From assembly GCA_020719005.1 (NCBI GenBank), contig DYQZ01000001.1, forward strand, positions 5,779 through 69,778: DNA of 64,000 nt, given 5' to 3'. A program made the position numbers and the translations under genes. Below the pieces are notes generated by a model. It ran no database searches and was not told the DNA's origin. It worked only from the letters and a program-made list of their open reading frames with translations. Source of the DNA: Candidatus Omnitrophus sp. GTDB lineage: Bacteria; Omnitrophota; Gorgyraeia; Zapsychrales; Fredricksoniimonadaceae. Positions 249 through 64,000 of this stretch are shown in pieces. Positions within the stretch are counted from its first letter, which is position 1; each line of letters begins with the position of its first letter.

Positions 249-250
249 TT

Positions 251-5196: not shown

Positions 5197-5199
5197 GAT

Positions 5200-6673: not shown

Positions 6674-6677
6674 TACC

Positions 6678-7094: not shown

Positions 7095-7106
7095 AAGAAA
7101 GAGCGT

Positions 7107-9258: not shown

Positions 9259-9262
9259 TGTG

Positions 9263-10974: not shown

Positions 10975-11002
10975 TTGCCACGCCTTGATAATATGCTATA
11001 CT
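10975..11002 (+). promoter_or_regulatory. Sigma70-like promoter for the giant gene: -35 TTGCCA (10975-10980), 16-nt spacer, -10 TATACT (10997-11002)
   Basis: Near-consensus hexamers with 16-bp spacing sit directly downstream of a very AT-rich stretch (10800-10970, UP-element-like). The predicted TSS is about 11009, giving a ~60-nt leader to ATG 11069. Confidence 0.4.
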
Positions 11003-11068
11003 CTTCATGTCGTCCTTGGTGGGACGATAGATATGTTTCATGAATAAACCCGTATCAAATGGGAAAAC

Positions 11069-14000
11069 ATGGACGAAAACCGCAAAGACCTCAACAAGAA
11101 CGACATTAGTCCCCTTTTTGGGGATGAGTCTTTGCGCGCGGTGTCTGAAACAAGTAATATTCCAGCAAAAACCCCCTCCACAACGCCCCTGACCCCGAAA
11201 AATGGGCATGCGGCTTTGGTCAATGAATTCAAAAATATGGTTCCCGACGGTGTTACGTCGAAGGATTCAGCTGAGACCTCAGTGCCTCCGGCAGGCGTTT
11301 TTGATGATGTGGACCCCGCTCTCGTAGGTGTGGGCATGGGTTCAGATGGTTTTGTGTTGGGTGCTGAGGATGCTATTGTCACACCCGAAGGTCCGTATTC
11401 CAGCCGTTTTAGCACGTGGATGCGCGTTGTTGCTTTTGCGATCGTTGCTATTTTTCTACCAGATCAGATCAGCTGGGCGTTTAATTATAATCCTGCCGTT
11501 CTTTACGGGAATCAGGTTTCAACGGTCATGGCCCCCATGCCCGGGATGGATCTTCTAACACCAAAACAACTTTCTTCCATGCAGGTTTCGGCCAGCGTTA
11601 CCGACCTCTTAAAACAAGTTTCTGAAAAGAGCGCGGATAAAGTAAGCATCAAACTTGATGATAATCAAGGACTTATGGGCCTGAATGGAAAAGAGCCCGC
11701 TATCCTTGAGATCAACAACGAAGCCAAAATGACCGCGCCCCAGATCGAACAGGTGCGTGCGTGGTTGAGCGATCCGAAGATCAATGCCCTCAATTGCGGT
11801 GTGTTCGCGCTGAAAGAAATATTGTCTGGTAATGGTATAGATAAAACCGTTACAGAACTTGCTGTTACGACGATCAGCACCGATTTGATGGCTAATATCA
11901 TCAAGCCTGGCGATAAAAAACTTAAAGTTACGCTTTATTCCATGACCGAAGTTGCTAAAGCCCTTGGTCTGAACGTCAAGGCCTTAAAAGTGGCACCGGC
12001 TGAAATGCTCGCCCTTCCCAAGCCGTTCGTGGCGCATCTTTCCGACGAGCACTTTATTACAGTTTTAAAGACAGATGGCAATGATGTTGTAGTGAGCGAT
12101 ATGGGCGAAACGCTCCATATGGCGCGCGACGATCTGGCCGCGAAAGCCAGTGGTTTTGTCCTTTCCCGCGTTGATGCCAACATCCTTCCTTCCTATAAAG
12201 AGGTTTCTTCATCCGCCCAGGCTTTCGTGTGGGGCGACCGTTGGAAGCGTCAAAAGCTTCCGGGGCTTGAATCTGCAGGGTCACAGCTGAGAAAATATGC
12301 GATCGACATGACGATCAAACTCGTCACGGCGATCATCGCTTTCTTTTGTGGTCCGGCGGGTTGGATCTCCTGGATCGTTGCTCAGATCGCCGATGCGCTT
12401 ACTAGGATATGTGTTGTGGCGGGTGCTTGTACGGCAAAACAGGCGTTTATCATTAATACAGCAATAGCTGTGGCGACGATCATCTGTACGCTTGGGGCAA
12501 GTTCTTTAAATACAGCAGGACAACAAACCGCAGCACAAGCTGGCGCACAAGCTTTCAAGGGGGCTCTTACAACCGCGTTAGGAACTGTTGTAGGGACTGT
12601 TGTATATGCGGCAATCGGCCTTGCTATTGGTGTAGGCGCGGCGCATTTATTATGGAAAGTCAATCAAAAGATAGACGCAAAATATGGTTCTAGTTCACCG
12701 ATCGCAATGACGTTGAAGGCGGTTGCGTCCGCGGTTGTGACGGGTGCATGTACAACCGGTCTGTTTAGCTGGGGGAACGCTATTAAAGATGGTCTGAAGA
12801 GCATGGCCAGCGGAGTGGGTACAGAAGCGGCAAAACAAGGCGCACAACAAACGGCTGCGGATTTTGCTGTAGCGATGTTTGTTAAGCTTCCGAAGTCGGT
12901 ATTAGATGGTATTGGTATAACCTCAAGTAGTGATGCCTTTAGGAGATTTTTATATACACAAGGCGGTTCTTTGGCTGTACGCATGGCATTTAAAAATAGC
13001 AAGGATACGGCATTGGTTGATGCGTTGGCCACTCTTGGTGGAGCGGCAGCTGGACTGGCGGGGTCTTATATTGAACATGGAGCTACGACTGGAGACTGGG
13101 CGGGTGTTCCAACGTCTCTTGGAGAAGAAATAGAGCCCGTTGATCCTACAACTGTTAATACGATGGCGGAAGCCACTACATCCGACGCGCCCAGGTCAGC
13201 TGTAGGTCAGTGGATCGACACAAAGATCCATAATACGGGTTGGACAGGGGCGATCGTTAGAACGATGGGCAGAGCAACTCTCGAGGCGAGCGTTTCATTT
13301 ACTATGGGCAGGATGGAAAAGAGCGTTGTTGGCGAAGATGATGGTTCGGCCGCTTATCAACAAAAACTTTTGGGGTATCGTTCGTTGAGTTTTGGTATTG
13401 CTGGAATGATCACAGGGGTTTATATAGGAGTACGTTCGGCGTTGGATTCCAATGGAACCGGCATGGTATCTTCTTTCTTTAAGGGTTTTGGGGGTGGCAT
13501 GGTAACTGGCGCTATGGATAGTCTTACCAAAGCGTATGGTAAGCAGGATTTTGATACGATCATGAGTAATGCTCCTAAGCAGGGCGGGATAGGCGGGGAT
13601 GTCGAATATAACATGGCTTTGGTAAATGCGGCTCAAGGCATGTCTAATAATACAGGTATGACCTATGAATATTTCAGCAGTTGGGATGCGCAATGGAAGA
13701 CGATGAAAGAAGAGAACGCCAAGTCTGACAATCCGGTGAGTCAAAAAGAATTGCGCAAGGAATATCAAAAAGCTTTTGGTCGAGATATTCAAAGCACCCC
13801 CGGCATCACAGGGATGAACGGTATTTTAAAGACAGCTAATATTGATATGCGTGTCAAAGCTGTTGAGAGCGGTGTGAGTTGGGCTATGACCCGCGGGCTT
13901 ACTTCAGGCTCTCTTGAGCATCAGCAAGCCAAACGTGCGGTGGTCAAGCTTGGATTGACCTATCGTGGAAAAGAATTATTTGCTGGATCTGATCGACAGT

Positions 14001-23000: not shown

Positions 23001-26000
23001 TAGCAAAGATTAACAATGACCCAGTCGCCAGGACCGCCGAGTTATTATTCCAAGCCCAAGTGAATCAGCGGATGCATGATCTAGCTAAAAGGAAGGGAAA
23101 TAACGATAGTGCTACTGGATATAAGCAGGCGGCTGAGAAGCTGTTGCGGTCTCCTGAGTTAAGGGATCTGTCACAAGCCAAGAAGATAAAGATGGAAATG
23201 TCGAACTTGCACGGTAAGGGCATTCTTCAAATAACATTTGAGGCGTTGCAAAGAAAAACAAACAATGAACTGAAGAATAATCCAGATTATACAGCGAAGC
23301 AAAAGTCAGAGATTCAAGCGAAATTGATAGAGGGCATGGCTAAGGTTCTTTCAGAGTATAAAGGAAAATCTATTAAAGAGGTAAAATCTGATAAAGGTAT
23401 AAAAAATATTGGTAAAGCGCTTGAGGCTCTTGCCAAGCAGGAAAGAGCTACTGATCCTGTAGAGAGAATGAAATACGCACAAGAGGCTGTTAAAGCACTT
23501 GATAAAGTAAAAAATGGTCCTGCAAGCCGTAAGACAGGTATCGATGTTCACCAGATGAGTGAACAGTTGAAAGTAGATATTAAATATGGAGAGATGAGGG
23601 GGAATCAAAATAGCCGGCTTCAATATAGCAGGATGACGTCTAGCAATCCAAAACTCGTACAACTCCTTGTTGAAAAGCTGATTGCAGTGCAAAAGCTCGA
23701 GACAGAAGTTGAGGCGTGGGAGAAGGCAGGCAAAAAAGGTCCTGAACCAGCGCTTGATTATAAAGGTCGATTAACTGAAAAAATAGAATTAATGATTTTT
23801 GATGCTTTGGTGAAAAAAAATCGTGTTGTTGCTAAAGGGGTTCCGCTTGTGTCGGATCTTTTCAAGATGAATGTTAGCAATTATCAGCAAGAAATGTCAT
23901 TTTTAAAAGAAGTTGATACGCAGAAGAAAGAGGCAAAGAAAATTACGGAGTACCAATTCTCGAAGGATGAAAGAACAATTTTAAACAATGAACAAACAAG
24001 AATAGAAGGTGAATTAAGAAAAGTATTTGAAAAGGCTTATAACGATAAGATGCAATCTCGGCCCGTAAATCAAACAGAGGCAGAGTTTAAAGCAAAAAAT
24101 CCTGAACCAACGCTAACAGACGGAAACAAGAAATTTATTGAGTTTGTTCTTAAAGCAGGTTTTGTGGCGGCAAAGGAAATCCGTATCGCAGGACGTGTTA
24201 AGAATCTTCCTGTTATTGCATTAGGCCTTGGTGGTGGAAAAACCACCATGGAGACGGCGCTATTAGGCGCGGTAAATGGATTCTTTAAAGGTGCATCTGG
24301 TCAAAAAGGGATTCTTCTTATTCTTGCCAAGCCTGATGTGGCGCAGGCAAACAAGACATTGGATAAAAAAGGTATCTTTAAGGGGTCGAGCAATCGTGAG
24401 AAGATCACCGTAGAAGAATTTCAACAGATGAAGAAGGAGGCGCTTGCTAAAGGAGAAGTGCTTGTTTTAACTAATACACAGATCAGCCAATTAGCCCTTG
24501 ATTTTAAGAATAGCCGTGGCCATGCTAAAGGTGATCCGATGTTGGATGCAAGAAATCCGTTCAAGGATTCTATGATCGTTGCGGATGAGGTCCACAGTCT
24601 TTTGCTGGCGCCCGCCATGATACAAAGCACAGGGCGCTCTGGCATGAGCTTTTTGTTATCTCAAGGCGTTGCATATCAACAGCGCCGTCAATTGGAAGCG
24701 CAATATGTTCAGGATCTTGTTAAGACAGCTAAAGGTATCGTTGGAAATAAGAATGTGAAAGATGTTCTTGGAGATCATACATTTGAAAGATCAGTCAAGG
24801 GCGACATCATCAAGCAGTTTGAAAGGAACTCTCCAGACGCTTACAATGCCATGAAAAAAGCAGGTGTTCTTGATATTTTTGTTGATGCTATTGGGCGAGG
24901 ATTGAATGAGTATTCAAAGAATGGTTATCTGATGGTTGAGCGTAATGGCAGGATGGAGATGGTGATCCTTGATAATATGCATGGCAATGGCGTTGCACAG
25001 TATGGCCGTAGCCTGACTTCGCGCACAGGTCTTAATGAAGATATGTTAGCGAGGATCTTCATAGCAACAGAGTTTCATGGCATGAAGAAACCTACTTTGG
25101 CGCGTCTTGTTGAAATGGCTACATCGCATCAGACGGTTCAGGTCACTTCGGGCGATCTTTTTGGTTTGGTTCCAGGCATCATGGGTTATACCGGAACGCT
25201 GCCCGCGATCGAAATGCCAGCAGGGTTTTTGGGAGCGCAAGCGTTGGAAGCAGGAAAATCTGCAAGTGCCCATATGCATACGAGAATGCAAGTGCGTATT
25301 CGTAGTGATGGCCGCTCTACTATAGAGGGAATGGTCGCTGACGGTATGGCCGTCTTAAACGGCAAATTGCACTCGGGTAGGGATATTGTTGTTTTAAACA
25401 GCAAGTATGCTCATGAAAGATCTGGCTCTTATGATGGTTTGCGTCATTTGCATGGTAAGACCGTCAATGGTAAGAAGGTTCTGGTTTTTGAAGTTCATCC
25501 CAATGAATTGGCGGCAGTTGAGGCGAGTTTGAATAGAAATAAAATAATAAACGGCATATCTGTTGAAGGTAAGAGGGTTGTTCTTATTACAGGAGTTGAG
25601 AGCGGCGCTTCATTTGAAACAGTGACCGGTGCAATGCGGGATTATTCTGCGCGCCCTAATTATGGTATAGATCAGGCATCACAGAGATTTAATACGATCA
25701 AATTTAAGAATCGTGCGAAGACTGGAAGTGAAGCAAGTGATACGCTGTTCTTATCAACGCGCGCAAATGGTAATTATGTTGCGATCTATAATGTAAGTAA
25801 AGAGCATGCTGATCCTTCTTTTAACCGCGCTGAAGCACAGATATTGCGTCATTTGAACGAGAAATTGCAAAGTGCTACAACCTTAAAAGAGAAAGCCATT
25901 ATTTATAAAGAAATCCGTAGTGCCGTTATTCAGTTTTCACAACGCATGGAGTTTGATGCCGCGCGTCAAGCTGCGACAACGGTGACGTCTAATGTTAATA

Positions 26001-47000: not shown

Positions 47001-50000
47001 ATGCAAGCATTGATACGGCTGTAAGTGATATGAAGGTTGTGTTTAAGGCCGCTGTTGGTCTTGAGATCGCCAAGCGTATTCATGCGCGTGAAGGCAAGGA
47101 AGCCAAGGTGGTGTTTGATGAGTCTGATGCGAAGCAGAAAAAAGGCGAGCCGGTAACAAAGTTTTATATTCCAACTCCGCAGAAAGAATTTAATAACCGC
47201 ATTAATGAAGCGGCCCTTCAGGTGAGCCGTCGTCATGAATATCAAAAAGCTCTGGTTAATACGTGGGCCAGCAGTGAAGCTGAATATAAAGCAATGATCG
47301 ATCAGTTGACCGAAGGGTTTGCGCTGACGATCTTCAGGAACATTGCTGATGCTGTAGGTATTGTGTATCAAGAGACAACGACAGCAAAAGAACTGGCTGA
47401 TCAGTTGGGTAATATTGATCTTTCTCAATATGATACGATCGCGAAGTTTGCGATCTTTAGCGGTCCACCCGGCGGCGGTAAAGGTGCTGTGTGGGATCGT
47501 TTTGAAGAGTTGTATGGGAAGATGACAACAAAGTTCGTTTTTTTTCATACACGTAATATCCGCAAGGGCGAGGTGATGGGAAAGAATTATCATTATCGCA
47601 ATCCTGATGCATTAAAGAAGCTGGAAAGTGAAGGCAAGATCATCACCGCTTCTATTAATGGTCAAGCGCAGGGATTGGCGGTAACGAGTTTTGAAGATGA
47701 TTATTCCTATGTTGATCCGCAGTCGAATGAAAAACATGAGGGAAGGGCAAGTGTTGCTTGTTTGGATCAGGTATTTAAGGGCAATAAGATCGTTATCCTT
47801 GAATGTGGTTTAGCCTGGTTCGAGGCGCTCCACAAGAAATATGGAGATGAGCTAACAAGTATTTTCATATCACCCTTCAGTGATCAGGAATTGGCGTGGA
47901 CAGAGATGTCGGTTGAAGATCGCAGGAAGTATGAAGCTTATGATCATAGAATTCTTGAGCGTGCGGCAGCGTTAAATAATAGAAGCGCTGCAATATTAGA
48001 TAGAATTGCGCACCACAAGAAATTTTCACACGATGGTAACGCGTTGCCTTTCTTTGGAACGACGGTGGTTTCTTTTGTTTCAAAGAATTCGGAAGCTTTC
48101 TTACGTTTGGTCGCTTTTCGTGATCGTCTTAAACAGGCTTTAGAGCGGGCTGGTTTGTCTAAATTTATGGCTTGGACGGAAATTGATTCTTTGCATATGA
48201 CGGTATGTGATATTGATAAAGAGCTTTCTGCTGAAGGGTTTGATGAGCATGTGATAAGGCGTAAAGAAGAAGCGCGCGAAGTGTTCAGTAAGATAAAGAA
48301 TATCACACCTGTTTCTGCGCAGATGAAGGGGCTTGGTTATAAGCTGGCCTTAACGGCACATGTTTTATTTAATGACCCCAAAGAGTTGGATAAGATATTT
48401 GAGGTCGAGGATTCTATAAAAAAGGGCACGAGTGAGCCTAAACAACAACGTGATTTCACAGGTCATATTACATTGGGTTATCCTGTTGGTGTGATGACGA
48501 TGGATGAACTGAATAAATTATTTGATATCTTCAAGCAGTTCTCGAACGATGATCTTAGAGATATTGTGTTTGATAATGTCACCTTTACACGATTCAGTAA
48601 TATGAATACATATGGAAGAGAGTTGTCCCTTGACCTTAATTCTGGTGAGATCCTTTCTTATGGTAAAGATCATGAAGTGTTGCTTGATATTTTTAATGGA
48701 GATCACGGCAAGCTTATTCATGCTCTCGGAGTTTGGAAAAAAGAGTTTAAAGATGTTTTAGGTGTCGAGAAGTCTTTTGAACAGTTGACGACTTTTAAAG
48801 ATGATGATCATCCACAAGGAACAGAATATTTACGTATCATTGATGGGCAAGATCAATATACCGGTGAAGTTCGTCCCAGAGATCTTTGTCATGCGCAGGG
48901 CACAGAGCATCGTGCCGTTGCGGTTATTCTTTATGATCGTGAGGGGCGTATTCTGGTGCAGGTGCGCTCGAGAAAGAAGAAGTTCTTTCCTGGCATGAGA
49001 GATGTGTCTGCGGCGGGTCATCTTGCTTTGGAGAAAGAATATTTGGATGGGGCCATTAATGAAACAGAGGAAGATGTCTTTGATAGCCGACATAAGCTTG
49101 ATCCTGATCGTTTTCAATACGTGGGAACATTTCCTGCGCATCATCGAAATGAGAAGATGGGCTTAAACGATAAAGAGATGGTTGTTTTGTATATGTATCA
49201 GGTGAGGGATGAAGAGAAGGCTCGCGTTGCAATTCAGGCATCTGAAGTAGAGGCTGTCGAATGGGTTTCTTTTGAGAAAGAGCTTTCGGATTGGCAGATG
49301 TGGTATACAGCGGTTGGTAATGGACATGAGCAAGGGAAGTTTGCCAATATTCAAGGGATGGCGGTTGGGTATGCCATTCTTGGAATTGATATTCTTGCCA
49401 ATGAACGTATCGTTGAAAAGATGGTGGATGTTGTAAAAAGGGGTCTTTCTATTAATTCCATGGCGTTTGCTGGAGAAAATAAGTTGGTGTCAACGGATAA
49501 ACAGGGTGCTGTTGAGACGCGGGCAGGTCCTGAAGAGATAAAAACACCTGCCAAGACTGCGGCTGAGTCAAGCCGTACGGCGCCACCCGTGGAGAAGGAA
49601 TTGCCTATTGTTCCTGCCTCATGCGTTAATTATTCCGCACGTTATGTTGATCTGCAAAAGATGTTTGAGACGCTTCGTGAATTGTTATCCTTCAAGAGTC
49701 CGACCGGCCAGGAAGGCCAGGTGCGTTCTTATATTGAAGCCTGGTTCCAGGCACAGCATATTCCGGTTACGGTTTTATATAAAGGGGACGCTCCCAAGAA
49801 CCTTGTCGTTGAGCTTGCGGCGACGTCGGGTCAGGAAAGCGTTGGGGTCATTGCGTTCGATGCGCATATGGATATTTCCGATAATAATGCTGCCGACCTG
49901 GTGTTGGATCGGAATGCTCAGAGAGTGATCGCCACAGGTAGGGATAACGGGGCCAATGGTCTTGATGACAAGATCGGTATTGCGGTGATCCTTGAGATGA

Positions 50001-53000
50001 TGCGGGCACTGCAGGAGAAGAATATTCCGCATGGCCGTATCCGATTGTTCTTTACCGCAGAAGAAGAAACTTTTGAACATCGGGGTGCACTTGATATTAA
50101 GACCCAGCACCCAGATCTTTTAAGAGATATTGCTTTGATGATACCTGTCGACGGGCATCGTTTGCAGAAGAATGGCCGATATGAAGATATTTTAAGCGGG
50201 GATGCTGGTTCTTTGGCGGTCATGTTCATTAATCTTGTAGATGGGGCTTTGGAGCGGTTGGTCGTGCTTGACGCCGGGCGCGCGCTTGGTATTGAGCCGG
50301 CAGTCTTTAAACTTAAGGCGAATGCCAGCGGTAATGAAACTATTTGGGGAGCGGCTGGAATGGCTGTGGCACATGTTCGTGCTAATTATGCGACGACAAA
50401 TGACAGGGCTAGTGTTGATCATGCGGATTATGCGGATATTTTGAGTTTAGGTGATTGGCTGGTTGAGATCGCTCGTCGAGGAGTAGAAATGTCAGAAGCC
50501 CAGTTTCTTAACGTCCCCGTCGTTACCCTCAAAGAAGAAACCCGCGTTGCGTTAGATGAGATGCGTGCGGATCATTTGAATAAGACCAAGAACACAACGC
50601 CTGCCCGGTATCGTGCGCTTTCTTCCATTGTTACGACGAGCATTGCCCGTGAACTTAGGAAGCACGCAGATCCTGCCAAGACCGTGATCGTTTTCCCGTG
50701 GCGTTCGGCCATGGCCATGAGCGAAGCGTTTGAGCGTGAAGGGTATCGTTACTTTTGGCACATCGGTGTCAAGCGCGATGAGAAGACGCTTGAGCCGTCG
50801 ATGTATTATAAGGGCAACTGGCGTATGCCGGAGGGTGTTGATGTGGCGGACCTTGAGGTTGTGATCGCGGACCCGATGTTTGCCATCGGCGGAAGTGTTG
50901 CCCTCACGATCGATATCTTGATGAAAGAAGAAGGCATCAAGCCTTCGCAGATCACGGGCGTGCATGTCGTCTCTGTCCCGGAAGGTATCAAGAACATCAC
51001 CGCGAAATATGCGATCAAGCGGATCATCACCGGGTCGCTGGATGAGAAGTTAAATGAGATCGGTTATATCGTTCCTGGCCTCGGTGATTATGGCGACCGT
51101 TATTTTGAAGGCATCAGCTGTGAAGAGGTCCGTCATTGGAGGAATCTGGACATTCTTGACGGGAATGATCTGAAGGCGCTTGAAGGGAAGATATTTGGGG
51201 CTGAGGCAGGGGACGATGTTGTGAAGGCATATAACGGCATTCTCACCCCTGATGAGATCGCGGCTCTTGCGGCGTATAAATCTAATACTGTAAAAGTAGA
51301 ACAGAAGGTGCTCGCCCCGGCGCTGGCCATGATCGACGGTCTGGTTTTTGAATTACCAGAGGCGCGGTGCCTGGATCTTGGTGTGCTCACGCGCAATCTT
51401 GAGGTTTGTTTAATTTCAATGCAGGGAAGGGCTCCTCCGAGTGCCACTATTGAGGACGGCATTCTTTATCTATTTTCATATGAGGATAATAAAATAACGC
51501 CAACGCTTCTGGCGCGCATGATGGTTCATGAAGTTGTTGAGGATCAAGCCCATCGCAGTATTTCAGGAATTTCTAACGAGAGCGCCCATTCTTTGGCCAT
51601 CGATGCCGAGAGATCCTTTTCCGATCTTTTTAATTCCCACGAGGTCTTTGTTGCGGATTATGACGGGACATTGCATAACTTTCAGCAAGGGGTCCCGGGG
51701 AAGGTGCGTCAGGCGCTCATCCATAATGTGCTGAGTTCTGGCCGTCGGCTGGTTATCGCGACTGGGCAGGCCCCGGACACGTTTTATACAAATATTTTTC
51801 CTCAGCTTGATCTTGCCGGGGCTATGCGTTATGACGGTCAGGTCTATATTCTAGGTGAGGTCGGCGGTTGTGCTCGGCTTTTACGTTCTGATAGAACGCT
51901 TGTTGATGATCCGGATCTTTCTTATGCGCCGATGAGTGAGGATTTTCGCTCCGAGGTCGCTCGTCAACTTGCGGGTATTCGCGCTGATCCGGCGATCGGT
52001 CTTTCTGATTGGGAGGTGGGGGTTGTTCAGCGCCATTCCATGATCTCGTTGCAGATACATTCTGAAGCGGCACACCGTAAAGCGCAGATGATCACGGAGC
52101 GTCTGCAGGCGGCTCTTGCAAGCTCGGGTTTTTATGTGACTAATGTGGTGGGTTGGTTCATCGATATTTCTTCAGCCAGCAAGGGCATTGGTGTTAAGCG
52201 ATACCTTACGAAATTCGGGCTTTCCCTTGAGGATACGCTCGTGGCTGGCGATAGCGGTAATGATATTTCCATGCTTGCCTTGGCAAAGGAAGGGGCCCAG
52301 GCGGTTTTTGTCGGATACGACGGGGCGATCTTGCCGTTGGATATCCGTGATAAGCTTGCGTATGTTCCGACGCCTGAAGCATTGGCTGATGTTATTTCTT
52401 CCAGATTTGTTCAAAAAGAGAGTGCCCCCGCTTTGTCGTTGTCTGGTTTTTGTGGCAACTGTACCGAGGCGATCAAGAAGGCATTGCCAGGGCTGGTCAT
52501 GGCCGGTAAGGTTGAGGTTCGGCGCTGTGCAGCGCTCGGCCTGCTTGATCTTGATGGGGACAAGGTTGATTTTCTTGAATTTGATTACAATGAGATCCCT
52601 GAAGCCATCCGTTTCAATGAACTCAGCAATATGCAGGAAGTTGCGATCTTTGCGGCTGAATATTCCAAGCCAGGGCATTTTTCGATCCATGTTTCTTCTG
52701 AAGCCCGCCGTCGATTTGATGCGCTTTTTCCCGTGGAAGATCCTGAGGCACGTAAGACCGCTCTTAAAGTGATCGCGCTTCATGAAAAAGTTGAGCTCGA
52801 CGGGATGAGCCATGCCAATGCCGTAGAATTCCAGAAGACGGTTGAGGGCTATAAGGTAGTTGCCGAACGCCTGGAGCGTTTGCAGTCGCTGGAGCGTGTG
52901 ATCATCCCGCTTGCGCATAACAGTGTTGATGTCTCTAATATCAAAGCCAGGATCGTGTTCGCGGAACGTCACAGTTTGACAGAAGAACAGCGTCAGATCC

Positions 53001-56000
53001 TTTTTGGTCTGCGTAATCTTGAGCTTATTGCCGCTGCGGTCCGTAAGATCGACAGTCATGTCAAGCGCGGGCGTTTTTCCTGGTTTTTTTCGGCAAAGCC
53101 TGTGTGTGCGGCTGAGGTGATCGAGGCTGTTGTGGAACGCCTCATCGCCGAGCGTTCCCGTTTGTCTGCTACCGTAGGGATCCTTGAATTGTTCGATGCG
53201 GTCATTACGGATGAGGAAAAGGCTATTCTTCAGGAGTGGGGCATTAATCCCGCCGGAGAAGTTGTCAAGGTTCCTCAAGGGCAGGGCACGATTTATGATC
53301 TCATCAATAAACATTTGGATGATAATGACCTGCTCTCGTATGCACCGATGATCGGTGATATGTCCGATATGATCGAGAAGAAGAAAGAACGTTTTAAAGG
53401 TGTTCCAGGACGCGCCGGCGCTTTTTATAGGGTTTTGACACCATTCTTGCGCAATATGGCCAAGCATGACCCAAGCCGTGTCGATCAGTACAAAATGTTG
53501 AGCGAGGGATTTTTGGAGAAGGTTATTAGTGAAGATGCCTTGCCGATGGTCAAGTGGTGTGAGGCGGGTGTCTTGGATGTCATTGCCACGTTCCGTACCA
53601 AGATCCAGACGGGAGAGGCGCGGATCGCTGATATGCGCACCAAGCTTTTGGAGCCTGATGCGGACCGTATACAATTGGAAAGAAGTATTTTGATGGTCCA
53701 GCAGAATACCGTCGGTCTTTTCATGGAACTTACGCAGATCTATGAGGATATCCTTTGGGAACTTGTTCTGGATTATCCCTATCAATTGGATTCTACACGC
53801 CGGATGTTGCGCGAGAATATCGTTCTGGCGCAAGTTTCCAGGATGGCGGATACACTTGCCGCTTTAAGCGCGCGCCAGGTTGAGGCGGATGAAGAGCCGC
53901 TGATCGCTCTTGAAGTAGAGCAGGCCCGTATTTTTACGTGCATTGCCATAGAGGCTATTGAACAGTTGAAAAAAGACGGCAGTCAGGATCTAAGCTACCG
54001 CAGAATGTTGGAACAGTCGGTGGATGCGGCGATGGAAGAGTTCAGGGCGCGTCTTCTGACACGTTTTGTTCCTTTGTATCGCGCACAAGATGCAGGGATG
54101 ACCATTGAACAGGCTGAAGAGAAAGTGTTGCGCGAGGCCCGTAATTATTACGATCATTTGACTGATTATATCATCGAAGAATCTGAAAAAGGGCTGGGGA
54201 CCACGGACCCTCACGGACTTCAGGCGGCACTTTTATATCATGATGTTCCTACTCCCATCAAATTCATGCGGACTGTAAGCGGTGCGCTTAAGGGGCGTCT
54301 TAAAGTGGTGCTGAATACACGCGGCTCGACGAACAATCATTATGCGCTGGCGGCCAAGGCTAACAAGATCCCTGTTCTGATCCTGGACCCTTCACGCCCC
54401 GATGACTTGAAAGATCTTCGGCGGTATCAGGAAGTGTTGATCCAGGACCACAGGGTTTATATTAATCCAAGCGCAAAGACACGCGATCGGGCAGATGGTG
54501 AGGAGCGTCGTCGTGCGGTTTATCAGGAATATTGCCGGTTTTGGGCAGCGCGTTCTTCGGTCGGCGCTGCGGCTAACGCGGATGATGCACAAGCGATCAC
54601 GGATGCTTTCAAGGAATTCATGGCGCGCAATATCGGCCTGGTGCGCAGTGAGAATTTGTTCCATGGTATTTTACCGGTCTCGATCACTGAGGCGATGATC
54701 GCGGAAGGAATACCGCAAGGCACGAAGATCTTTGATATCGGGGCGATGATCGAGACGCCGGGTGCCGTGGTAGATCTGGATAATATTCTTTCGCTGGCCG
54801 CATTCGTTAGTATTGGTTCGAATGATCTTACGGCAAAGACCTACCGTATCGATCGTGCGAGCGTTGAGCAGGGGGCGCGTGTTTATGGGCGTGTGATGCC
54901 TTTGGTGTTAAGGAAGATCCGGACGGTCATTGAAAAAGCGAATGCCGCTGGCGTTGACGTTTCGATCTGCGGCGACCTTGCGGCCATGAGGCGTTTTTGG
55001 ATCGTGTGGGCGTATTTGCGTCATCAAGGCGTGCGTGTGCATTTAAGCATGCCGGCGCACGAGATCCCCGAGTTCAAGGCGAGGATCAAGGCGTTGGAAA
55101 TATACCAGGGTTCTCATGCTGTCGTTGGGGCATGGGATATGATCGATAAGATATTTGCTCTTCCCGAGGATGAAGTTGCCGCGGATGACGAAGCGTTAGC
55201 CGTTCTTTTGGATAAAAAGCTTTTGCGGCTCGATCAGATCATCAGGAAGCGTCTTCGGATCGGGTCACTTCAGGATACAAAAGGTCCTTGCACCGCGGCC
55301 GATAGTCATAATGGAAAACTTTATTCCTCATTTCTTCCTTTGATCGTCCTGACGATAACGCTTCAGGCCGGTATTATGTGGCTTGCTGTTGGTTTAGGTG
55401 CATTTGTGTTCTGGAAGGTCTATAAGAATTTTCTGCGTTCCCGGGCCGGGCTTGGACAGCCTGCGGCTCTTCGGCCTTGGCTTATGGGCATGCTCAAGGT
55501 GGCGGCGCGTTTATCGGAAAGGATCTTTTGGCCTTATAGTTCAGCTTTCAAGCGGGCAACTTCTTTTGATCTTTGGACAGTTGCAGGAACGATCAGGCGC
55601 AAAGAGGTGCGAACACTGTTGTTCCAGGTCGCGGGCATGATACGCCGTGATCGTGAAGTTTATCTGGCTTCAAAAGCTGCGGCTGTTCATTTGCCGTCTT
55701 GTTTTGGCGTTTATTTGGCACGTATTTTTGCAGGTGTTATCCCTATTGCGGTTTATCGTAAGGTTGATTCTTCCAGTCCCTCTAATGGTGCTGATATAAC
55801 CTGGCTTAGCAAAAAAGGGTTATTGGATAAGAATGGTTTTATGGAGGAGTTTGTTGATCCGCGCGGAAAGTTATCCTGGGGTATGGCCGGCTTTTATGCG
55901 GATATCATCGAGATCTATTTGTTGAATACGCATGATCATACCCGGATGGTGGCAGAGATGGTGCGTTCTTATCTGGATCATCAAAAGTCTGTTTCTCATA

Positions 56001-59000
56001 AAGAATTCTGGCAGTTGATCGGCCGCTCCTCGTCACAGCAGATGGCACAATACCGCCAGGATGTTGAAGCCATGATCCACAACAGTCGCTTGAATAAGGT
56101 TGGGCCTGTTGCTTTTCACCAGAAGATAAAGCAGTTTCTTCTTATCCGCTTTGAAACAAAGGGTTTTGTCATTGAGAATGAGCTTATCGGATGGCTCTAC
56201 CGGACGTCGCAGGATAAAGGCTTCGAGTCTTTGGCTGATGAACTGGTGCGTTTGCTCGACGTTGCGCGCAATGTGGGTTATGCGATGGAACATCATGTTC
56301 GCGCGGGGTTGAAAATGTCAGGATTGAACGAATTGATGCCGCGTCATATTGTGTTTGCTTATGAGCCTCGTCAGGGAAAGGGTGCGGCTGTTTTAAACAG
56401 CACCTACAGGCTTAATTATTTCAGGTATTCCCTTCACGGGTTGGAGCAGGCAGAGCTTTTGGAAATGCTTTTGTATGATATTTATTTTCATATCATTTAC
56501 GCGGATCAGATGTTGGTCGGATCCTGTGCTTATCAGGCGTCCCGCCCTGGTGCCAGTAACATGCTCGAGGATGAACATTTTTGCACGGCGGCGTATCCGG
56601 TGGAAACTCTTGAGGGAGTGGATCTGGTCCGTCTTCAGGACCGTTTGGCCAAAGTGATGGCTGAACATATAGCGGCCCGGCTGGCGTTTGGCAAGGATGT
56701 TCAGATCGCGGGTGCACGTAGCAGGATATTCATGACGATCAGTAAGCTCAAGAACGGCGCTTTGCTTAAGGATCTGGCACTTGAAATGGCATCTCGTTAC
56801 GCTGTGGTGCAGACGGAAGGATATAACACTATTTTGGCGTCGGAGATCGCACAACTTAACGTATTTCTGACAACAAAGGCTGTGTATAGTGATGACGCCT
56901 TGGATGTTGAGGCTTATATTGCATTGCATGTGCAGAAGATGGCGGAATTCTTTCAGAAGGTGGAGTTCAAGAAAGATGTTCGTGTGAAGCTCGTGCATAA
57001 AAAGTTCTTTCTGGCCAGAGGCGGGCATGATGAGCGGTCGCTGGGAGAAATGAACATGGAAGGCCAGATCACGATCCCGGTGAAGTATTTCATGACCACG
57101 CGCGGCTATAAAGAGGTTCTGGCCCGTACTGCGGCCATGCTCAGCATGTATCGTTTCCGTCATAAAGTGAATGATCAGCAGACCGTTATTCATGATATGG
57201 CCAGGCAGATGATGCTGTCTTCCGATATCAGGGAACTTTTAACATTGATGTTCACGCTTAATGGCAGCCGCATGCCAGAGGCTCGTGCTCAGGCTCTTTT
57301 GGATGGATTTGATGAGGTAGAGGCGCGGGGGGCTTATGATATTGTGACGTTGGAGGATGAGCTGTCCCGTCATCTTAACGAGCTTGGGTATCAATATATT
57401 GCGATAGGTAAGGATGAAAAAGGTTTCCGGATGTCTTTTCTTTCTCCAGCGGCTATCGGAAAGATGATCCAGCAAGCGTGGGAAGCGTCCCGGAAAAATC
57501 CTCATGCGGAAGTTTTTCCTTCCACGGGTTTTGCCATTCGTCCTACTGTTGGCGGGCGGGCGATATTCCGAACATTCGATCCCGTATCTCCCGAGAACTT
57601 TGTGCACTATCATTTGCGCGGATTTATTCAGGCTGGAGAAGGCGCGGATCAGCATACGATCGTGATGCAGGGGTATGAACCGCGCAATCCCGATCTTTTC
57701 ATGAAATATCACGGATGGTTCGGGATCTACACGACGTCGGATCTGATGGGATTTCTGCGCAATGATATGATCCTGACAGCCCGTCGCTTTATGCTGTGCG
57801 GTGTGTTTTCCGGGCACACCAGGGTTGTGATCCAATATATTGATCAGCACGGCAACAAACAGCAGGAGATCGTCAGCCTCGTCACGCTCGCGCGCGAGGT
57901 TATTTACCGCCGGCATGATGTGCCCAGGCGCAATCATCCTGATTATGTGCCACAGTCGCACATCCTCGCTACCGGCGAAACACTTTCCTGGTATAACTAT
58001 TTTCTGATGAAGAAAAGATTGGGGCGGCGTCTTTCAAAGAAGGAACAAAGGTATGTTCAGCTTTTTGAACGCATGACCCCTGATGATAAAAGGGATTCTT
58101 TGCTCACGAAGATCTGCCATGATTTTCAGGTCATTGACGAAAAGACCTTGCTGGCTATACCGGTCATGGGGAGAAAAGATCTTCGGCTAGGGGATATTAA
58201 TATCCGTTGGAGAGTTATTTTCCGCCAGTTCATTAAGAAATGGGCACACCGTCATGTTTTTGTTTTATTTACGGTTGAACGCCCTTCTTCTTTGTTAAGC
58301 AGTATACAGGCATTCTCCGGCCTGCCAGGATCAGATGCAACAATGCCCGAACTGCCTCCGTCGATCCGGCCTCGTGATGAAAAAGAACATTCCAGATTTA
58401 ACGAGTCTTTCAAGTCTTTGGCACGCATCCTTTCTCCTACAAAGGTCATGTGGATCATGCCCATGTATAACGAGACATGCCGTCTTTTACCAAGAACAAA
58501 GACCAATCATCCTGGTGAAGATGCTTTGCGTGTTAAGGTGCAGGAGATGTTGGTGGCGCAGAAGATCAATCCTTTATTACAACAGCGCCTCTTGGCCGTT
58601 GATGACGGCACACCGGAATTGACATCGGCAGCGACGGTAAAAGATCTTTGGGAGAAGATCCGCGAGGAATATTGCAAGGAAGGTATAGAGCTTGACCCTG
58701 ACATGGTCCAGGTCATCGATGTTTCCCCCGAAGAAAAGAAAGAGATGGGAAGTAAGAAAGGCTGGGCAGTCCTTAAAGCCATGGCTTTTGCCGCGAAGGA
58801 CGGCTGGGCGGATATGATCGGTTTTACGGATACGGATATTTCAACGAATTTGATCCAGGCTCCGCTTCTTGTCGAGAAGCTCCAGCAGGGCGCGGGCGCC
58901 GCGATCGGGTCGCGTTGGATGCGCGGGGGAGAAGTTCGGGATATTTCGATCAAGCGGATGCTTTCGAGCAAAGGCTTCCTTTATTTGGTCACCTTGATCC

Positions 59001-62000
59001 TGCTTCCGCTCTTTGGCATTCATGATACGCAGCGCGGCTTTAAATTGTGGCGCAAAGAGATGATCCCGCTTTTTATCAAGTATGCCACCGAACACGGACT
59101 TGCGTTTGATACGGAACTCTTGTTACTTACACGGATGACGGGGAAGAAGATCATAGAAGTGCCGATCGCTTGGTTTGATTCTGCGGAAGCTAGCACGGTC
59201 GCGCTCGGCGTGGAATGGAAGGTCATGTTGCTTGCGGTCATCAAACAGGCGCGTCATTGGCTTAATCCTTTGATGTGGATGAAAGTTCGCTCTGCGATGA
59301 AGGACTCGGCGCGGTCGGTGCCGGATGAGAAGAAGGCATCAGCTTGGGCAGTGGGTCTTGAGATATTGCGTGTGGTCGGGATCTTCGGCTGGAAAATAAA
59401 GAGATTGAGGGTTGAGCACAATGTTACGCTCGCCGTGAATTTCCTGCGGTCGATCGGAGAAGAGGCGCGTGCGAAGGTGATCGAAGAAATGGCGCGTACC
59501 GGGCGTGTGCGGGCAGGTCCGTTCAAAGGGTTTTTGGCAACAACGTATCGCTGTTTGAATGGTAGTGAATATATCCTTCTTTCTGATCTTCCTTTATATG
59601 CCAAGCGTGGCTGGTTAAGTGCATGTGAAATGAATGCGAGTGTTGTGCACGAGAGCGGTGCGCTTTCAGCGTTCAGGCTTTCCCATGAAGATAATGTTAT
59701 TTTTGAGTCATGGTTCCGTCGGGCTTTTAATGTTGCCGCGTTGAAGCCTGTTGAGATCATAGATAATTTTACCGAGACACTGATCGAGCATCAGAGCGCT
59801 TTTGGGACAGGCGTTGTTGATCTGCGTCAGGTGCCGGAGAAAGTGGATGTTATTGTTGTCGGCGATCTGCATGGCCGCATTGATACGCTCGAGTCTATTT
59901 TAGGTCATCGGATCAAACGCGTGGTTGCTTTTCAGAAAGAATTGGAAGAGTCTGTTCTTGAGAGGGTCAGCTATGGACAGGCAGTTCTGCTCTTTTTAGG
60001 GGACGCGGTCCATGCAAGCCCACAGCGTGAGCAGGTGAGCAGGGCCGTTGAACAGGCCGCTTTTCAAAAAGGCAGAACGCTTACGGCATCTGAAAAAGAA
60101 GCCATCATCGCACCGTATTTCATCAATGCCGAAGCTTCTTTCAAGACGATGCAAAGGATCATGACACTTAAGATCATGTATCCGCGGCATGTGTATTATC
60201 TCTTGGGGAATCACGATCTCCTGGATTATCCCTGGGAAAAATTCACCGATGGTGTTGAAATTGATCAGACGAAGAATTATGTAGAGTATTTGCGAAGCGT
60301 TATCGGGGACGCGGGGGTTGAGAAATATAAAGAAGCCATGCGTTTGAGCCCGGTCCTTTTCTTGGGCAGGAATATCGTGGCGGCTCATGCCGGTCCAGTG
60401 AAAGGCCCTTGTTCGCTCGATGAGATCGGTCGGATCAATACGGCCTCGCTCGTCGATACCCGCATGCGGGACCTGTTGTTCAGCCGTTATTACAGGTTGT
60501 CATTAGTTGAGAGCAAAGATTACATGTATGACGAGTCTGATGTTGACGGCTTCTTGCGTGCTATTGGTTATGATCCGAAGATGACATCGTTCATTGTTGG
60601 CGATGCCCCGTTCGCAGGGAGCGCGTTCTATCATCAGGTTTTCTTGAATCATTATGTTGTTGCCGCAGCCAAGCGTGAGGCCGGGTATGCACTTTCCCGT
60701 GGGGGGCGTCTGGAGTTTGTGGTAGTTGAAGAATCTTCTTCTTTCAGGGTGTCCTCCTTTTTGCCCGTGTCTGTTGCAGCAGTGGCGGCATTCTCTCCTC
60801 GGGATATTCATGTACATGATCTGGTGGGTTGGGGTGGGATGCTTGTTGGTACCATGCTCGCGCTATTCTTATTGCGTAGAACAGATCGCCGGGAAGCTGC
60901 GAAAGAGGATCTGCCGAGAGATGGTTTTCGTACTGTTGATGAAGCGGCGTGGTATGCCATGGAGAGCATTAGCGGATCAACCCTTCCAGGATCCAAGGAC
61001 AGCGTTGAATGGGCGGGATGGATATACAAGAACGATGAGGGGACATATGCTTATACGTCCGCCCAGAAAGCAGGTAGAACGGGAGGCATTCTTGAGGGCA
61101 AGCCTAAGAACACAATGGCAGTGTATCATTCGCATTGTGCTTCCGGTCTTTACAGCGAATTCTTTTCTGATATGCAGACAGACCCTGTTACAGGAGAGCG
61201 CTTAGGGGATAAAGATAGCGCGCGTGCGCATCGCATTGATTGTTATGTTGTTACTCCGTCGGGAACAAAAAGGAAATACGAACATTTAGGGGAAGATGTT
61301 TTCGTTCTTTCCAATAAAGGCAAGAGCCAAACAAAAGACATGTTCGCCCGTCTGGATGAGTGGGGTATTGCTGATCCATGGATCGGTTTCTTGATGTCAC
61401 CTCAGGTGTGGATGAGGATGTTCGTCCGCCGGTGGTTGATCATACAGCCGGTCACAGGGGATCAGCATGGCGCTGCGACATCCATACCCCGGCAGATGCT
61501 GTTGGACAAGACAATACAATATAACGAGCGTGACCTGGAGATCTCTTGGAAGGCCAGAGAAGCGTTGATAGGGAAGACCGATCTGCATTGGAAAGATCCG
61601 GTCGTCTTAAGCAAGTCTGCCGCGACGGACGCGCTGATCGATCAGCTTGTTGAGAAGATAAGAGGGCATGAATTTGATGAAGGGGTCCCGTTGGCAGAGA
61701 TCGTTAAGACAAAGGGCAGGATCTTGTGTGAGTCGTTTGAATTCGTGCTGAGGGAGATATTAAAGAACGCTTTTGATGCGTATGCCATGACTGATCTGAA
61801 GTCTGAGACCGTGAAGGGGCCGGTGAGGGTGCGGATCTTTAGGCAGGGAGCTGACCTTGTCGTTGAAGTATCAGATAACGGCGTCGGGTTCGTTGAGGGC
61901 GTGGTCAAGGCAAAGATCTCAGGCAAGATCATTTTTGGCGGTAGAGGCATAGGCCTTTTGCGTTCGAGGATCCTTTGCCAGGTGCGCGGCGGGGATGTAA

Positions 62001-64000: not shown

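Follow-up and report, generated by a model that had tools for sequence, protein, structure and literature searches.

A stop-free reading frame of at least 52.9 kb with the features of an Omnitrophota giant gene, and its putative membrane-bound multi-enzyme product

The sequence analysed here is a stretch of 64,000 nucleotides (nt) from contig DYQZ01000001.1 of assembly GCA_020719005.1 (forward strand, positions 5,779 to 69,778), referred to below as the window and numbered from its first letter. From nt 11069 to its end it is occupied by one open reading frame (ORF), termed the giant ORF. The window probably carries the first 53 kb, counted from the 5' end, of a real giant gene of Omnitrophota type ('Archaeovorin'-like, or a 'multi-enzyme metabolic cluster'), whose product would be a membrane scaffold at the cytoplasmic face. 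Assignment to this type follows from the C39 domain, the domain-less N-terminal region, the transmembrane (TM) helices, the enzyme repertoire, the secretion-pilus locus upstream and the homologues of the guanylate kinase-like (GK-like) and Nudix modules. Omnitrophota are tiny bacteria with a predatory or epibiotic life, and their giant genes rank among the longest coding sequences known.

The giant reading frame

Frame 2 of the forward strand was free of stop codons from nt 11048 to nt 64000 (17,651 codons) and ran off the window end. The resulting feature is as follows.

11069-64000, + strand: giant ORF, 17,644 codons from its ATG, at least 52.9 kb, 3' end beyond the window

Over nt 11048-64000 the +1 and +2 frames contained 849 and 1,621 stops, respectively (one per 11-21 codons). 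As the frame lacks all three stop codons, it is open whatever the genetic code. Its GC content at codon positions 1, 2 and 3 was 55, 39 and 49 %, as coding sequence should look, and the eleven genes upstream of it terminate normally with TAA or TGA. The first ATG, at nt 11069, was also the start called on an independent NCBI assembly (GCA_974335155.1, contig CDCMTA010000093.1), where the product comprises 13,758 amino acids (aa) and reaches that contig's own end. Together with three Logan contigs drawn from two runs, it was 99.98-100 % identical to the window in the regions of overlap; for CDCMTA010000093.1 the identity was 99.98 % over 18 kb, with 3 differences only. Nucleotide tandem or dispersed repeats that might mislead an assembler were not found in the window, and overlapping and antisense ORFs (up to 622 aa) gave no family matches.

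Within the protein, the internal repeats consisted of one tandem GK-like pair and one pair of 135-aa modules; no others were found. The two GK-like copies differ at 31 % of nucleotides with a dN/dS of 0.12, which indicates that both have been retained as protein in the frame of the giant ORF. Where it could be measured, the giant ORF is thus under purifying selection. The giant ORF is one genuine, intact reading frame of at least 17,644 codons, and in this the preliminary description of the window, which had placed all of its domains on one continuous polypeptide, was borne out.

GC skew was positive in all 2-kb bins of the window from 1 to 64000 (0.08-0.30), with a cumulative skew that climbed monotonically, and all credible genes of the window lie on the + strand. 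Reads of the population carrying the giant gene are contained in run SRR1559353, one of the metagenome runs from Frasassi/Acquasanta sulfidic cave biofilms (PMC4288042).

Domain content of the predicted protein

The whole translation was scanned twice against Pfam, cut first into four overlapping pieces of 5,000 aa and then into pieces of 1,000 aa, using curated cut-offs, and was also searched against all PDB chain sequences. Catalytic motifs were read against family signatures and HMMER alignments (alignments in the case of the uracil phosphoribosyltransferase and the phosphoglycosyl transferase). Thirteen distinct Pfam families passed their curated cut-offs (M28/M42 counted once, and Hydrolase_3/S6PP counted once), and a family 2 glycosyltransferase (GT2) was added by its PDB match.

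The preliminary description had listed sixteen domains recognized by eye, and 14 of these were recovered in place by the Pfam and PDB-sequence searches, all in the one ORF: C39, NAGPA, two GK-like modules, 2H, Nudix, M28/M20, uracil phosphoribosyltransferase, HAD, PEP-utilizers_C, GT2, Metallophos, HATPase_c and the PglC/WbaP-type transferase. The order needed one correction, the M28/M42 peptidase lying before the uracil phosphoribosyltransferase and not after it. As to the other two, the proposed SecA/SF2-like ATPase proved to be a conserved module with GxGKT, DEVH and GYTGT motifs and found neither hidden Markov model nor fold support, and the HExxH motif lies in a conserved HExxHE module that matched no known family.

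Judged by these motifs, the catalytic sites of the C-terminal ~6,000 residues are largely intact. Some modules may be non-catalytic, given missing partner domains and degenerate motifs.

Nucleotide-metabolism block and adjoining domains

The following features were assigned between nt 46166 and nt 55096.

46166-47038, + strand: GK-like module, copy 1 (aa 11707-11997; Pfam Guanylate_kin E 0.005, sub-threshold; PDB guanylate kinases E 0.004)
47048-47914, + strand: GK-like module, copy 2 (aa 12001-12289; Pfam Guanylate_kin at 47444-47650, E 8e-10, 39 bits against a cut-off of 25)
48020-48478, + strand: 2H phosphoesterase (Pfam 2H-phosphodiest at 48020-48211, E 3e-8)
48905-49282, + strand: Nudix domain, YfcD/IDI-like subgroup (Pfam NUDIX E 3e-9; PDB 2fkb YfcD E 1e-8)
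49802-50170, + strand: M28/M20/M42-type metallopeptidase (Pfam M42 E 3e-5, M28 E 4e-5; PDB tripeptidase/peptidase T E 1e-6)
50630-51109, + strand: uracil phosphoribosyltransferase (UPRTase; Pfam UPRTase E 2e-28 to 3e-28; PDB UPRTases E 1e-21 to 1e-23)
51650-52294, + strand: HAD-IIB (Cof-type) phosphatase (Pfam Hydrolase_3 at 52067-52294, E 1e-11; PDB 3r4c)
54638-55096, + strand: phosphoenolpyruvate (PEP)-binding TIM barrel (Pfam PEP-utilizers_C at 54719-55096, E 3e-24 to 2e-25; PDB PTS enzyme I C-domain and PEP synthase)

The GK-like copies form a tandem pair, 70 % identical, both matching PDB guanylate kinases and both carrying the motifs SGPPGGGKG and HTRNIR..GE..G..YHY. Both HxT motifs of the 2H phosphoesterase (LHMTV and GHITLG) are present, as are the metal-ligand motifs HxD, DD and EE of the M28 domain. 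Upp enzymes are marked by the phosphoribosyl pyrophosphate (PRPP) loop DPMLATGGS and the uracil-binding signature YIxPGLGDxGDR; in the giant protein the PRPP loop (DPMFAIGGS) and the uracil loop (YIVPGLGDYGDRY) are intact and align with those of the PDB UPRTases, while the first ~50 profile positions are unmatched. The HAD domain has motif I (DYDGT, nt 51653) and motif IV (GDSGND), and the PEP barrel has LVRSENL, GSNDL and ICGDLA.

An active IDI was considered for the Nudix domain and rejected: in a by-eye comparison with the IDI motif, the active-site region reads VSAAGH and lacks Cys.

Glycan-transfer block and remaining C-terminal domains

Further towards the window end, the following features were assigned.

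58601-59176, + strand: GT2 of the dolichol/polyprenol-phosphate-sugar synthase type (PDB 5mlz DPMS E 4e-7 at 58778-59176; Pfam Glycos_transf_2 E 0.1)
59303-59707 and 62897-63277, + strand: 135-aa module, copies 1 and 2 (41 % identity, E 8e-20; no Pfam match)
59849-60487, + strand: calcineurin-like metallophosphoesterase (Pfam Metallophos E 1e-6, 29.5 bits against a cut-off of 21.5; motifs GDLHG and GNHD)
60995-61282, + strand: DUF4329 (Pfam E 9e-8, 32.5 bits against a cut-off of 28.6), not among the domains listed earlier by eye
61742-62056, + strand: GHKL (HATPase_c) ATP-binding domain (Pfam E 2e-7; N, G1 and G2 boxes)
62159-62647, + strand: small monotopic phosphoglycosyl transferase (PGT) of PglC/WbaP type (Pfam Bac_transf E 5e-29 to 1e-29; PDB WbaP E 1e-17, PglC E 5e-12)

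The GT2 motifs DDGTPE and TDTD are present. In the PGT, positions 2-175 of the 179 in Bac_transf were matched, the re-entrant helix lies at 62171-62236 (aa 17042-17063), the Asp-Glu dyad SLDEWPQ aligned to SLDELPQ of WbaP, and GPRP is kept. The first copy of the 135-aa module directly follows the GT2, and the second directly follows the PglC-type transferase. The module may serve both of these lipid-linked sugar transferases as an accessory domain.

N-terminal region

The N-terminal part of the giant protein contains the following features.

11426-11482, + strand: first hydrophobic helix, candidate signal-anchor (aa 127-145; Kyte-Doolittle 19-residue mean 1.85)
11792-12163, + strand: C39-type papain-fold peptidase (aa 249-372; Pfam Peptidase_C39 at 11927-12163, E 1e-8, 35 bits against a cut-off of 22)
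12320-12643, + strand: cluster of 3-4 TM helices after C39 (aa 425-532; hydropathy scans)
12752-29299, + strand: Cys-free stretch, rich in Ser/Thr/Asn/Gln (aa 569-6084; 0 Cys in 5,516 residues)
24212-25702, + strand: P-loop/DEVH-box ATPase module, SF2-like (GLGGGKT at 24224, DEVH at 24584, GYTGT at 25184)
27812-28684, + strand: HExxHE module, with HELLHE at 27962 (29 % identity to nt 16078-16950 of contig L075, E 1e-29)

The C39 domain sits between the hydrophobic helices at aa 127 and aa 425-532, and its catalytic residues are all in place: Cys (NCGVFAL, nt 11795), His (EHFITV) and Asp (VVSDMG). No Cys at all occurs in aa 569-6084, whereas 11 are found over aa 6085-11,600 and 39 over aa 11,601-17,651 (6,051 residues), and the Ser/Thr/Asn/Gln fraction dropped along the chain from 0.22-0.29 to ~0.16. 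Between C39 and NAGPA (nt 12163-36227, ~8,000 aa) there was no Pfam or PDB-sequence match at E<=0.01; the sole marginal match in the interval, in the PDB-sequence search, was to RNA polymerase alpha (E 0.039) near nt 28361-28678.

For the ATPase module, a full HMMER scan of 1.84e9 representative proteins returned 3 relatives, all of which keep the same three motifs, with a spacing in the giant protein that is roughly SecA-like. With tblastn, co-linear similarity of the ATPase region extended up to 1,088 aa on long-read contigs L075 (ERZ25039501 contig_45139), L076 and L077 (ERZ25039529). These contigs hold the only distant kin of the N-terminal half. The homologous region is broken there into consecutive same-strand ORFs of 130-1,570 aa, so that these ORF chains are probably giant genes fragmented by long-read indel errors. 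Such fragmentation would leave the family under-represented in protein databases. Scans of metagenome contigs with the ATPase alignment and with the N-terminal 560 aa gave no relatives.

The ATPase module and its relatives had no Pfam or NCBIfam match. The module had no match among PDB sequences (phmmer and profile searches) and none at E<=0.001 in a word-index search. SecA proper has an NBD1 with an inserted PPXD, an NBD2, and helical scaffold and wing domains. None of the SecA models (SecA_DEAD, SecA_PP_bind, SecA_SW) matched at E<=10, and hhalign against E. coli SecA aligned 24 columns at GMTGTA only, with a probability of 1.3 %. An AlphaFold2 (AF2) model built from a 4-sequence alignment was unusable (predicted local distance difference test score, pLDDT, 39); Foldseek gave weak RecA-like/SF2 matches (E>=0.014) and no SecA, and these were given no weight. 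At motif level the 24.2-kb module can be described as a conserved P-loop/DExH ATPase module. Its SecA-like label is a lead and not a finding, and it should not be filed as SecA.

In zincin metallopeptidases HExxH is joined by a third metal ligand within a recognisable fold or family. In the giant protein HExxH occurs once, against ~0.3 expected by chance. Pure chance was dropped as an explanation once the alignment with L075 showed conservation: the motif is kept there (GVFVHELLHEWNKK in comparison with GVFLHEMVHEYFKK), with the shared pattern 'GVF.HE..HE..KK.VR.GK'. The module (~290 aa) lies ~1,100 aa after the ATPase module in both the giant protein and L075, where it forms the next ORF. It had no Pfam or PDB-sequence match, and its single-sequence AF2 model (pLDDT 50) was unusable.

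Membrane topology and proposed role

TM helices were called from hydropathy scans. About 25 TM-like helices were found in 8-9 clusters (~2 % of residues), at aa 127, 425-532, 8275/8321 and 8596 (bracketing NAGPA), 10241, 10527-10657, 11359-11583, 14765/14884, 16568/16592 and 17042. Those beyond the N-terminal region, other than the PGT helix, are as follows.

35870-36889, + strand: NAGPA glycosidase domain with bracketing TM helices (Pfam NAGPA at 36227-36700, E 2e-15, 58 bits against a cut-off of 25; helices at 35870-35923, 36008-36058 and 36833-36889)
41768-43018, + strand: three strong TM helices (aa 10241-10267, 10527-10552 and 10628-10657; Kyte-Doolittle means 1.9-2.7)
45122-45796, + strand: polytopic bundle of ~6-7 TM helices just before the nucleotide block (no significant Pfam match)
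55340-55753, + strand: TM pair, candidate hairpin (aa 14765-14902)
60749-60874, + strand: one or two TM helices (aa 16568-16609), with six Lys/Arg on the C-terminal side

There was no strong TM candidate in aa ~800-8275, in aa 11,590-14,760 (nucleotide block and PEP barrel) or in aa 14,900-16,560 (GT2 and metallophosphoesterase). Weak hydrophobic segments occur in the TM-poor stretches, for example at aa 2875-2891 and at aa 15976-15991, the latter inside the GT2. The earlier view that the domains are interleaved with TM bundles therefore holds for the chain as a whole, yet the nucleotide block is a single TM-free stretch.

UPRTase, guanylate kinase, GHKL and PEP-utilising enzymes, GT2 polyprenol-phosphate-sugar synthases and monotopic PGTs all use cytoplasmic substrates. 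A position of the enzyme-rich last third at the cytoplasmic face, with few outward loops, is favoured because UPRTase needs PRPP, the GK-like and GHKL domains need ATP and the PEP barrel needs PEP, and because GT2 and the monotopic PGT act on nucleoside diphosphate (NDP)-sugars and polyprenol phosphate at the inner leaflet. The helix of the PGT is re-entrant, which would keep the preceding DUF4329-HATPase segment on the same side, and the TM helices of the last third are paired, so that the chain would return to the side from which it came. The TM-bracketed NAGPA domain is the best candidate for an outward-facing loop. Giant proteins with TM helices only have likewise been read as cytoplasmic-face (Nielsen & Lui 2026, 10.64898/2026.06.07.730766).

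In the preferred reading, the giant protein would be a scaffold on the membrane, bringing into one place the start of polyprenol-linked glycan synthesis and the turnover of nucleotides and phosphate. On the glycan side, the PGT would release uridine monophosphate (UMP) and the GT2 would make polyprenol-phosphate-sugar; on the turnover side would stand the UPRTase, the nucleoside monophosphate (NMP)-kinase-like modules, and the Nudix, HAD and phosphoesterase domains. ATP, PRPP, PEP, NDP-sugars and polyprenol phosphate would be supplied at the cytoplasmic face. Outward exposure would be limited to short TM-bracketed loops such as NAGPA, perhaps along with the Cys-free N-terminal part, and these might handle the exported polymer or touch a partner cell. 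What results would be a surface glycan or coat, or else the processing of such a structure, for contact with host or prey cells.

Upstream secretion-pilus locus

All eleven ORFs of at least 150 aa in nt 1-10,480 share the strand of the giant gene, one short antisense ORF excepted. Those with family matches are given here; several further upstream ORFs had none.

2378-3982, + strand: GspE/PilB-type secretion ATPase (Pfam T2SSE E 2e-97)
3955-5196, + strand: GspF/PilC-type platform protein (Pfam T2SSF E 8e-41)
5200-6252, + strand: YhcG/DUF1016 PDDEXK nuclease (Pfam), between the T2SSF and pilin-like genes
6194-6673, + strand: pseudopilin/pilin with N-terminal methylation motif (Pfam N_methyl E 2e-6)
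7107-8027, + strand: pseudopilin-like protein with phage tail-collar domain (Pfam N_methyl, Collar E 4e-23, Gp10_C)
8009-8908, + strand: TraU-like protein of F-type type IV secretion/pilus assembly (299 aa; Pfam TraU E 1.5e-27)
10975-11002, + strand: sigma-70-like promoter candidate (TTGCCA, 16 nt, TG-TATACT; 10 of 12 positions matching), 67 nt before the ATG within AT-rich sequence, by consensus match only

The same gene order is kept on CDCMTA010000093.1, which has TrbI, TraV, TraC and a secretin further upstream. The locus thus mixes type II/type IV-pilus parts with F-type type IV parts, on the same strand and directly before the giant gene. The TraU-like protein also matched the NCBIfam models TIGR03756 and TraU, under their cut-offs. 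The TraU-like gene is intact in the window, whereas in GCA_974335155.1 the TraU call is only 158 aa, with a T-to-A change at window position 8500 and a G-to-A change at 8551, and TraU may be polymorphic or truncated within the population. For the YhcG-type nuclease no record of the exact protein was found, but there is one of a variant that differs by one nucleotide. A tail-collar domain combined with a T4 Gp10 C-terminal-like domain is unusual for a pseudopilin, and the product of 7107-8027 might, to judge from these domains, be the adhesive tip of a pilus encoded beside the giant gene.

The spacer before the giant gene measures 588 nt (10481-11068). Its first half is GC-rich with several short inverted repeats seen by eye; its second half is very AT-rich, with six promoter-like sites against 1.6 expected. 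No Rfam families or tRNAs were found in the window, the spacer included.

Points against the preferred reading and alternative explanations

Several observations weigh against the cytoplasmic-face scaffold or against its link to Omnitrophota. Topology rests on hydropathy, and several weak TM candidates alter the in/out parity. The ATPase module lies inside the Cys-free stretch, so that the break in composition is not simply one of outside and inside. Some enzymes look incomplete: the Nudix box is partly degenerate, the PGxTGxxQV motif of the PGT is degenerate and one of its loops is shortened, the HisKA partner of HATPase_c was not detected with Pfam, and a phospho-histidine swivel domain for the PEP barrel was not detected in the Pfam and PDB scans of the translation. 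Pfam SecA_DEAD, present in most published giants, was not found in the giant protein, and GT5/GT1, methyltransferase (best E 0.11) and HEAT/TPR domains of Archaeovorins are absent or sub-threshold in the visible 17.6 thousand amino acids (kAA). The window has no taxonomic marker, the link to Omnitrophota being made through homologue names and locus type; one of the four NCBI-named homologues of the GK-Nudix pair comes from Deltaproteobacteria (the other three are Candidatus Omnitrophica/Omnitrophota). A search of genome contigs with the T2SSE protein gave 69 loci from many phyla, at up to 43 % identity, with no close relative.

The chief rival holds that most of the chain is exported to the outer face or a coat, where it would process nucleotides, phospho-sugars and glycans of host or prey. 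This surface factory or effector was the reading of the preliminary description and of West-Roberts et al., and is regarded here as doubtful, though still the likeliest of the alternatives. It draws on the secretion-pilus locus directly upstream, on NAGPA and DUF4329 as typically extracytoplasmic families, and on the first ~5,500 residues past the TM cluster, which are Cys-free and rich in Ser/Thr/Asn/Gln as in exported proteins. Published predictors also put most giant-protein domains outside the cell, which counts against a cytoplasmic-face enzyme block, and 39 % of long proteins have a signal peptide together with TM helices; West-Roberts et al. 2023 (bioRxiv 10.1101/2023.11.21.568195) themselves call some of the predicted outside locations 'highly unlikely'. 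From family biochemistry, UPRTase, GK-like, GHKL (HATPase_c), PEP barrel, GT2 and PGT domains need substrates at the cytoplasmic leaflet (ATP, PRPP, PEP, NDP-sugars, polyprenol phosphate), and the nucleotide block is TM-free. The PGT keeps its re-entrant helix and Asp-Glu dyad, and its enzyme class acts on the cytoplasmic face. The Cys content of the C-terminal third is normal. The accompanying guess of an epibiont or predator fits, as the locus and domain repertoire match those of Omnitrophota giant genes and the GK-Nudix homologues are mostly named as Omnitrophota.

Somewhat less probable again is a polyprotein, that is, a precursor cut by the N-terminal C39 domain or by other proteases into separate enzymes and structural pieces, as proposed by West-Roberts et al. 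2023 (bioRxiv 10.1101/2023.11.21.568195). A C39 domain with Cys, His and Asp in place near the N-terminus speaks for it, as do the M28-type peptidase domain and the HExxHE module on the same chain. The sequence itself gave no support to cutting by the C39 domain: sites resembling double-glycine leaders numbered 0 against ~1 in shuffles, and GG dipeptides are scarcer than composition predicts (67 observed, 106 expected). Cleavage of such giant proteins has not been demonstrated experimentally (West-Roberts et al. 2023). Processing of this kind is compatible with either topology, and hence does not exclude the cytoplasmic-face scaffold.

A bolder form of the scaffold reading is judged improbable. 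In it, the C-terminal third would be a self-sufficient, membrane-tethered 'UMP-cycle' assembly line: PGT and GT2 would load polyprenol phosphate; UMP, uridine diphosphate and host uracil would be recycled by UPRTase, the NMP-kinase-like pair, Nudix, HAD and phosphoesterases; the NAGPA loop would trim the exported polymer; and the conserved ATPase and HExxHE modules of the Cys-free N-terminal half would form a new device, peculiar to these giants, for self-export or processing. If true, this would be a new pathway organisation, a metabolon built as one membrane protein in an organism of reduced genome.

Even less credence is given to a mobile or conjugative origin, in which F-type transfer genes (TrbI, TraV, TraC, TraU) would belong to an integrative conjugative element (ICE) carrying the giant gene as cargo. 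TraU is in the window and TrbI, TraV and TraC are on CDCMTA010000093.1; a PDDEXK nuclease gene lies inside the locus; there is a weak NCBIfam match to an ICE protein family; and Nielsen & Lui 2026 keep passenger genes of integrative elements as a surviving hypothesis. That ICE-family match scored 55 bits against a cut-off of 188, no relaxase, coupling protein, integrase or transposase was found in the 16.8 kb upstream of the giant gene (window and CDCMTA010000093.1), and type II parts mixed with type IV parts are precisely what has been reported for the conserved locus upstream of Omnitrophota giants.

An artefact (mis-assembly, contig collapse or chimerism, or sequencing errors that fused separate genes) is very unlikely despite the metagenomic source of the assembly and the opposite error in related long-read contigs, where a giant gene is split into many ORFs, because 17,651 stop-free codons stand against a stop every 11-21 codons in the other frames, upstream genes stop normally, no tandem or dispersed nucleotide repeats occur, three independent assemblies agree where they overlap (one holding 13,758 codons of the same ORF), and the domains are co-linear in one frame with a paralogue dN/dS of 0.12.

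Comparison with known systems

Two kinds of very large bacterial or modular proteins offer partial parallels. Giant repetitive surface adhesins of the RTX/LapA/SiiE type, which leave the cell through type I systems with C39-like domains, are likewise very large and have an N-terminal region poor in Cys. The giant protein differs from them in that tandem, RTX and Ig-like repeats are missing and its visible part shows no C-terminal secretion signal, in carrying C39 within itself and not in an ABC transporter, and in its many internal TM helices and cytoplasm-type enzymes. Multi-enzyme polypeptides of eukaryotes (such as CAD or fatty-acid synthase) and bacterial megasynthases (nonribosomal peptide synthetases and polyketide synthases) fuse catalytic domains of one pathway area and provide a precedent for co-localisation or channelling. 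They are soluble, contain carrier domains and follow a fixed modular scheme, whereas the giant protein is anchored in the membrane, lacks carrier domains as well as repeated modules, and joins unrelated enzyme families.

The closest likeness is to the giant genes of Omnitrophota, in which ORFs of more than 20 kb were found in most classes (Seymour et al. 2023, PMC10066038). In the account of West-Roberts et al. 2023 (bioRxiv 10.1101/2023.11.21.568195), the giants have a C39 (or S8) peptidase near the N-terminus beside a signal peptide or hydrophobic segment, an N-terminal region poor in domains, many TM helices and, in most cases, a divergent SecA_DEAD helicase with a preprotein-binding domain. 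A secretion locus with homologues of type II and type IV systems (GspD/E/F, class III signal peptides) is conserved upstream of the genes, and PilZ genes and genes for solute binding or transport come after them. Their 'Archaeovorin' class has domains of glycosyltransferases, peptidases, NUDIX, HAD, HATPase, PPDK-type and glycolytic enzymes, its type sequence being a 39,678-aa protein of Velamenicoccus archaeovorus LiM (bioRxiv 10.1101/2023.11.21.568195). The giant ORF resembles this class as a giant single ORF with C39 near the N-terminus by hydrophobic segments, a long domain-less N-terminal region and many TM helices; in its glycosyltransferases (here GT2 and PGT), peptidases (C39 and M28), NUDIX, HAD, HATPase and PPDK/PEP-type domains; and in the secretion locus directly upstream with type II and type IV parts (more than 10 genes in published giants). 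It differs in that SecA_DEAD/PPXD was not found by Pfam, only an SF2/SecA-like ATPase module at motif level, and the main text of West-Roberts 2023 does not name UPRTase, GK-like modules, 2H, NAGPA or a PglC-type transferase. Glycosyl hydrolases and methyltransferases also belong to the published domain set; the visible part of the giant protein has the NAGPA glycosidase, but no significant methyltransferase and no GT5/GT1. The ORFs of that set exceed 90 kb; the giant ORF is at least 52.9 kb and open at the window end.

Homologues point the same way. The GK-like module, with or without Nudix, is 47-57 % identical to eight contig-limited fragments. The GK-Nudix cassette is conserved in the proteins P0014, P0015 and P0022, the last of which (6,609 aa) has GK-GK-Nudix in the same order. 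P0018, an Omnitrophota fragment that is 50 % identical across 214 aa, carries GT5, GT1 and NUDIX as well, a set typical of Archaeovorins. In P0021 (a 2,632-aa fragment) a UPRTase 45 % identical to that of the giant protein stands alongside a ribulose-phosphate epimerase domain.

Nielsen & Lui 2026 (10.64898/2026.06.07.730766) catalogued 916 proteins of at least 10 kAA, with 'multi-enzyme metabolic clusters' as one class. TM helices or signal peptides occurred in 94 %, type II/IV-pilus genes adjoined 13 of the 14 largest, and 80 % of sequence clusters were singletons. The giant protein (17.6 kAA, against at least 10 kAA) fits this class in carrying many Pfam families on one polypeptide with none dominant by copy number, in its HATPase_c, HAD, NUDIX and kinase/phosphotransferase domains, in its TM content of ~2 %, in the flanking type II/IV-pilus genes, and in being sequence-unique, with few or no relatives at 30 % identity. 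UPRTase, Guanylate_kin, PEP-utilizers_C and Bac_transf are not mentioned in the main text of Nielsen & Lui 2026. Topology runs place the flagship example of those authors outside the membrane, whereas the enzyme block of the giant protein is argued here to lie at the cytoplasmic face.

The suggestion that housekeeping-type enzymes fused in a giant envelope protein were an undescribed architecture is refuted by these studies, since published Omnitrophota giants have a matching C39 domain, domain-poor N-terminal part, TM helices, enzyme set and upstream secretion locus. The architecture was described in 2022-2023 and catalogued at scale in 2026, and the picture that multi-enzyme giants exist, linked to secretion-pilus loci, is unchanged. 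The giant ORF is a new, sequence-unique example. Its contribution is a well-resolved domain list with intact catalytic motifs, in which several families (UPRTase, the duplicated GK-like module, 2H, NAGPA and the PglC-type transferase) go unmentioned in the main texts of the published studies. Three of its modules are common to otherwise unrelated giants (the GK-Nudix cassette, the P-loop/DEVH ATPase and HExxHE) and offer short targets for expression and assay. The substrate logic of its enzymes supplies a testable argument in the debate on whether the enzymes of giant proteins lie inside or outside the cell.

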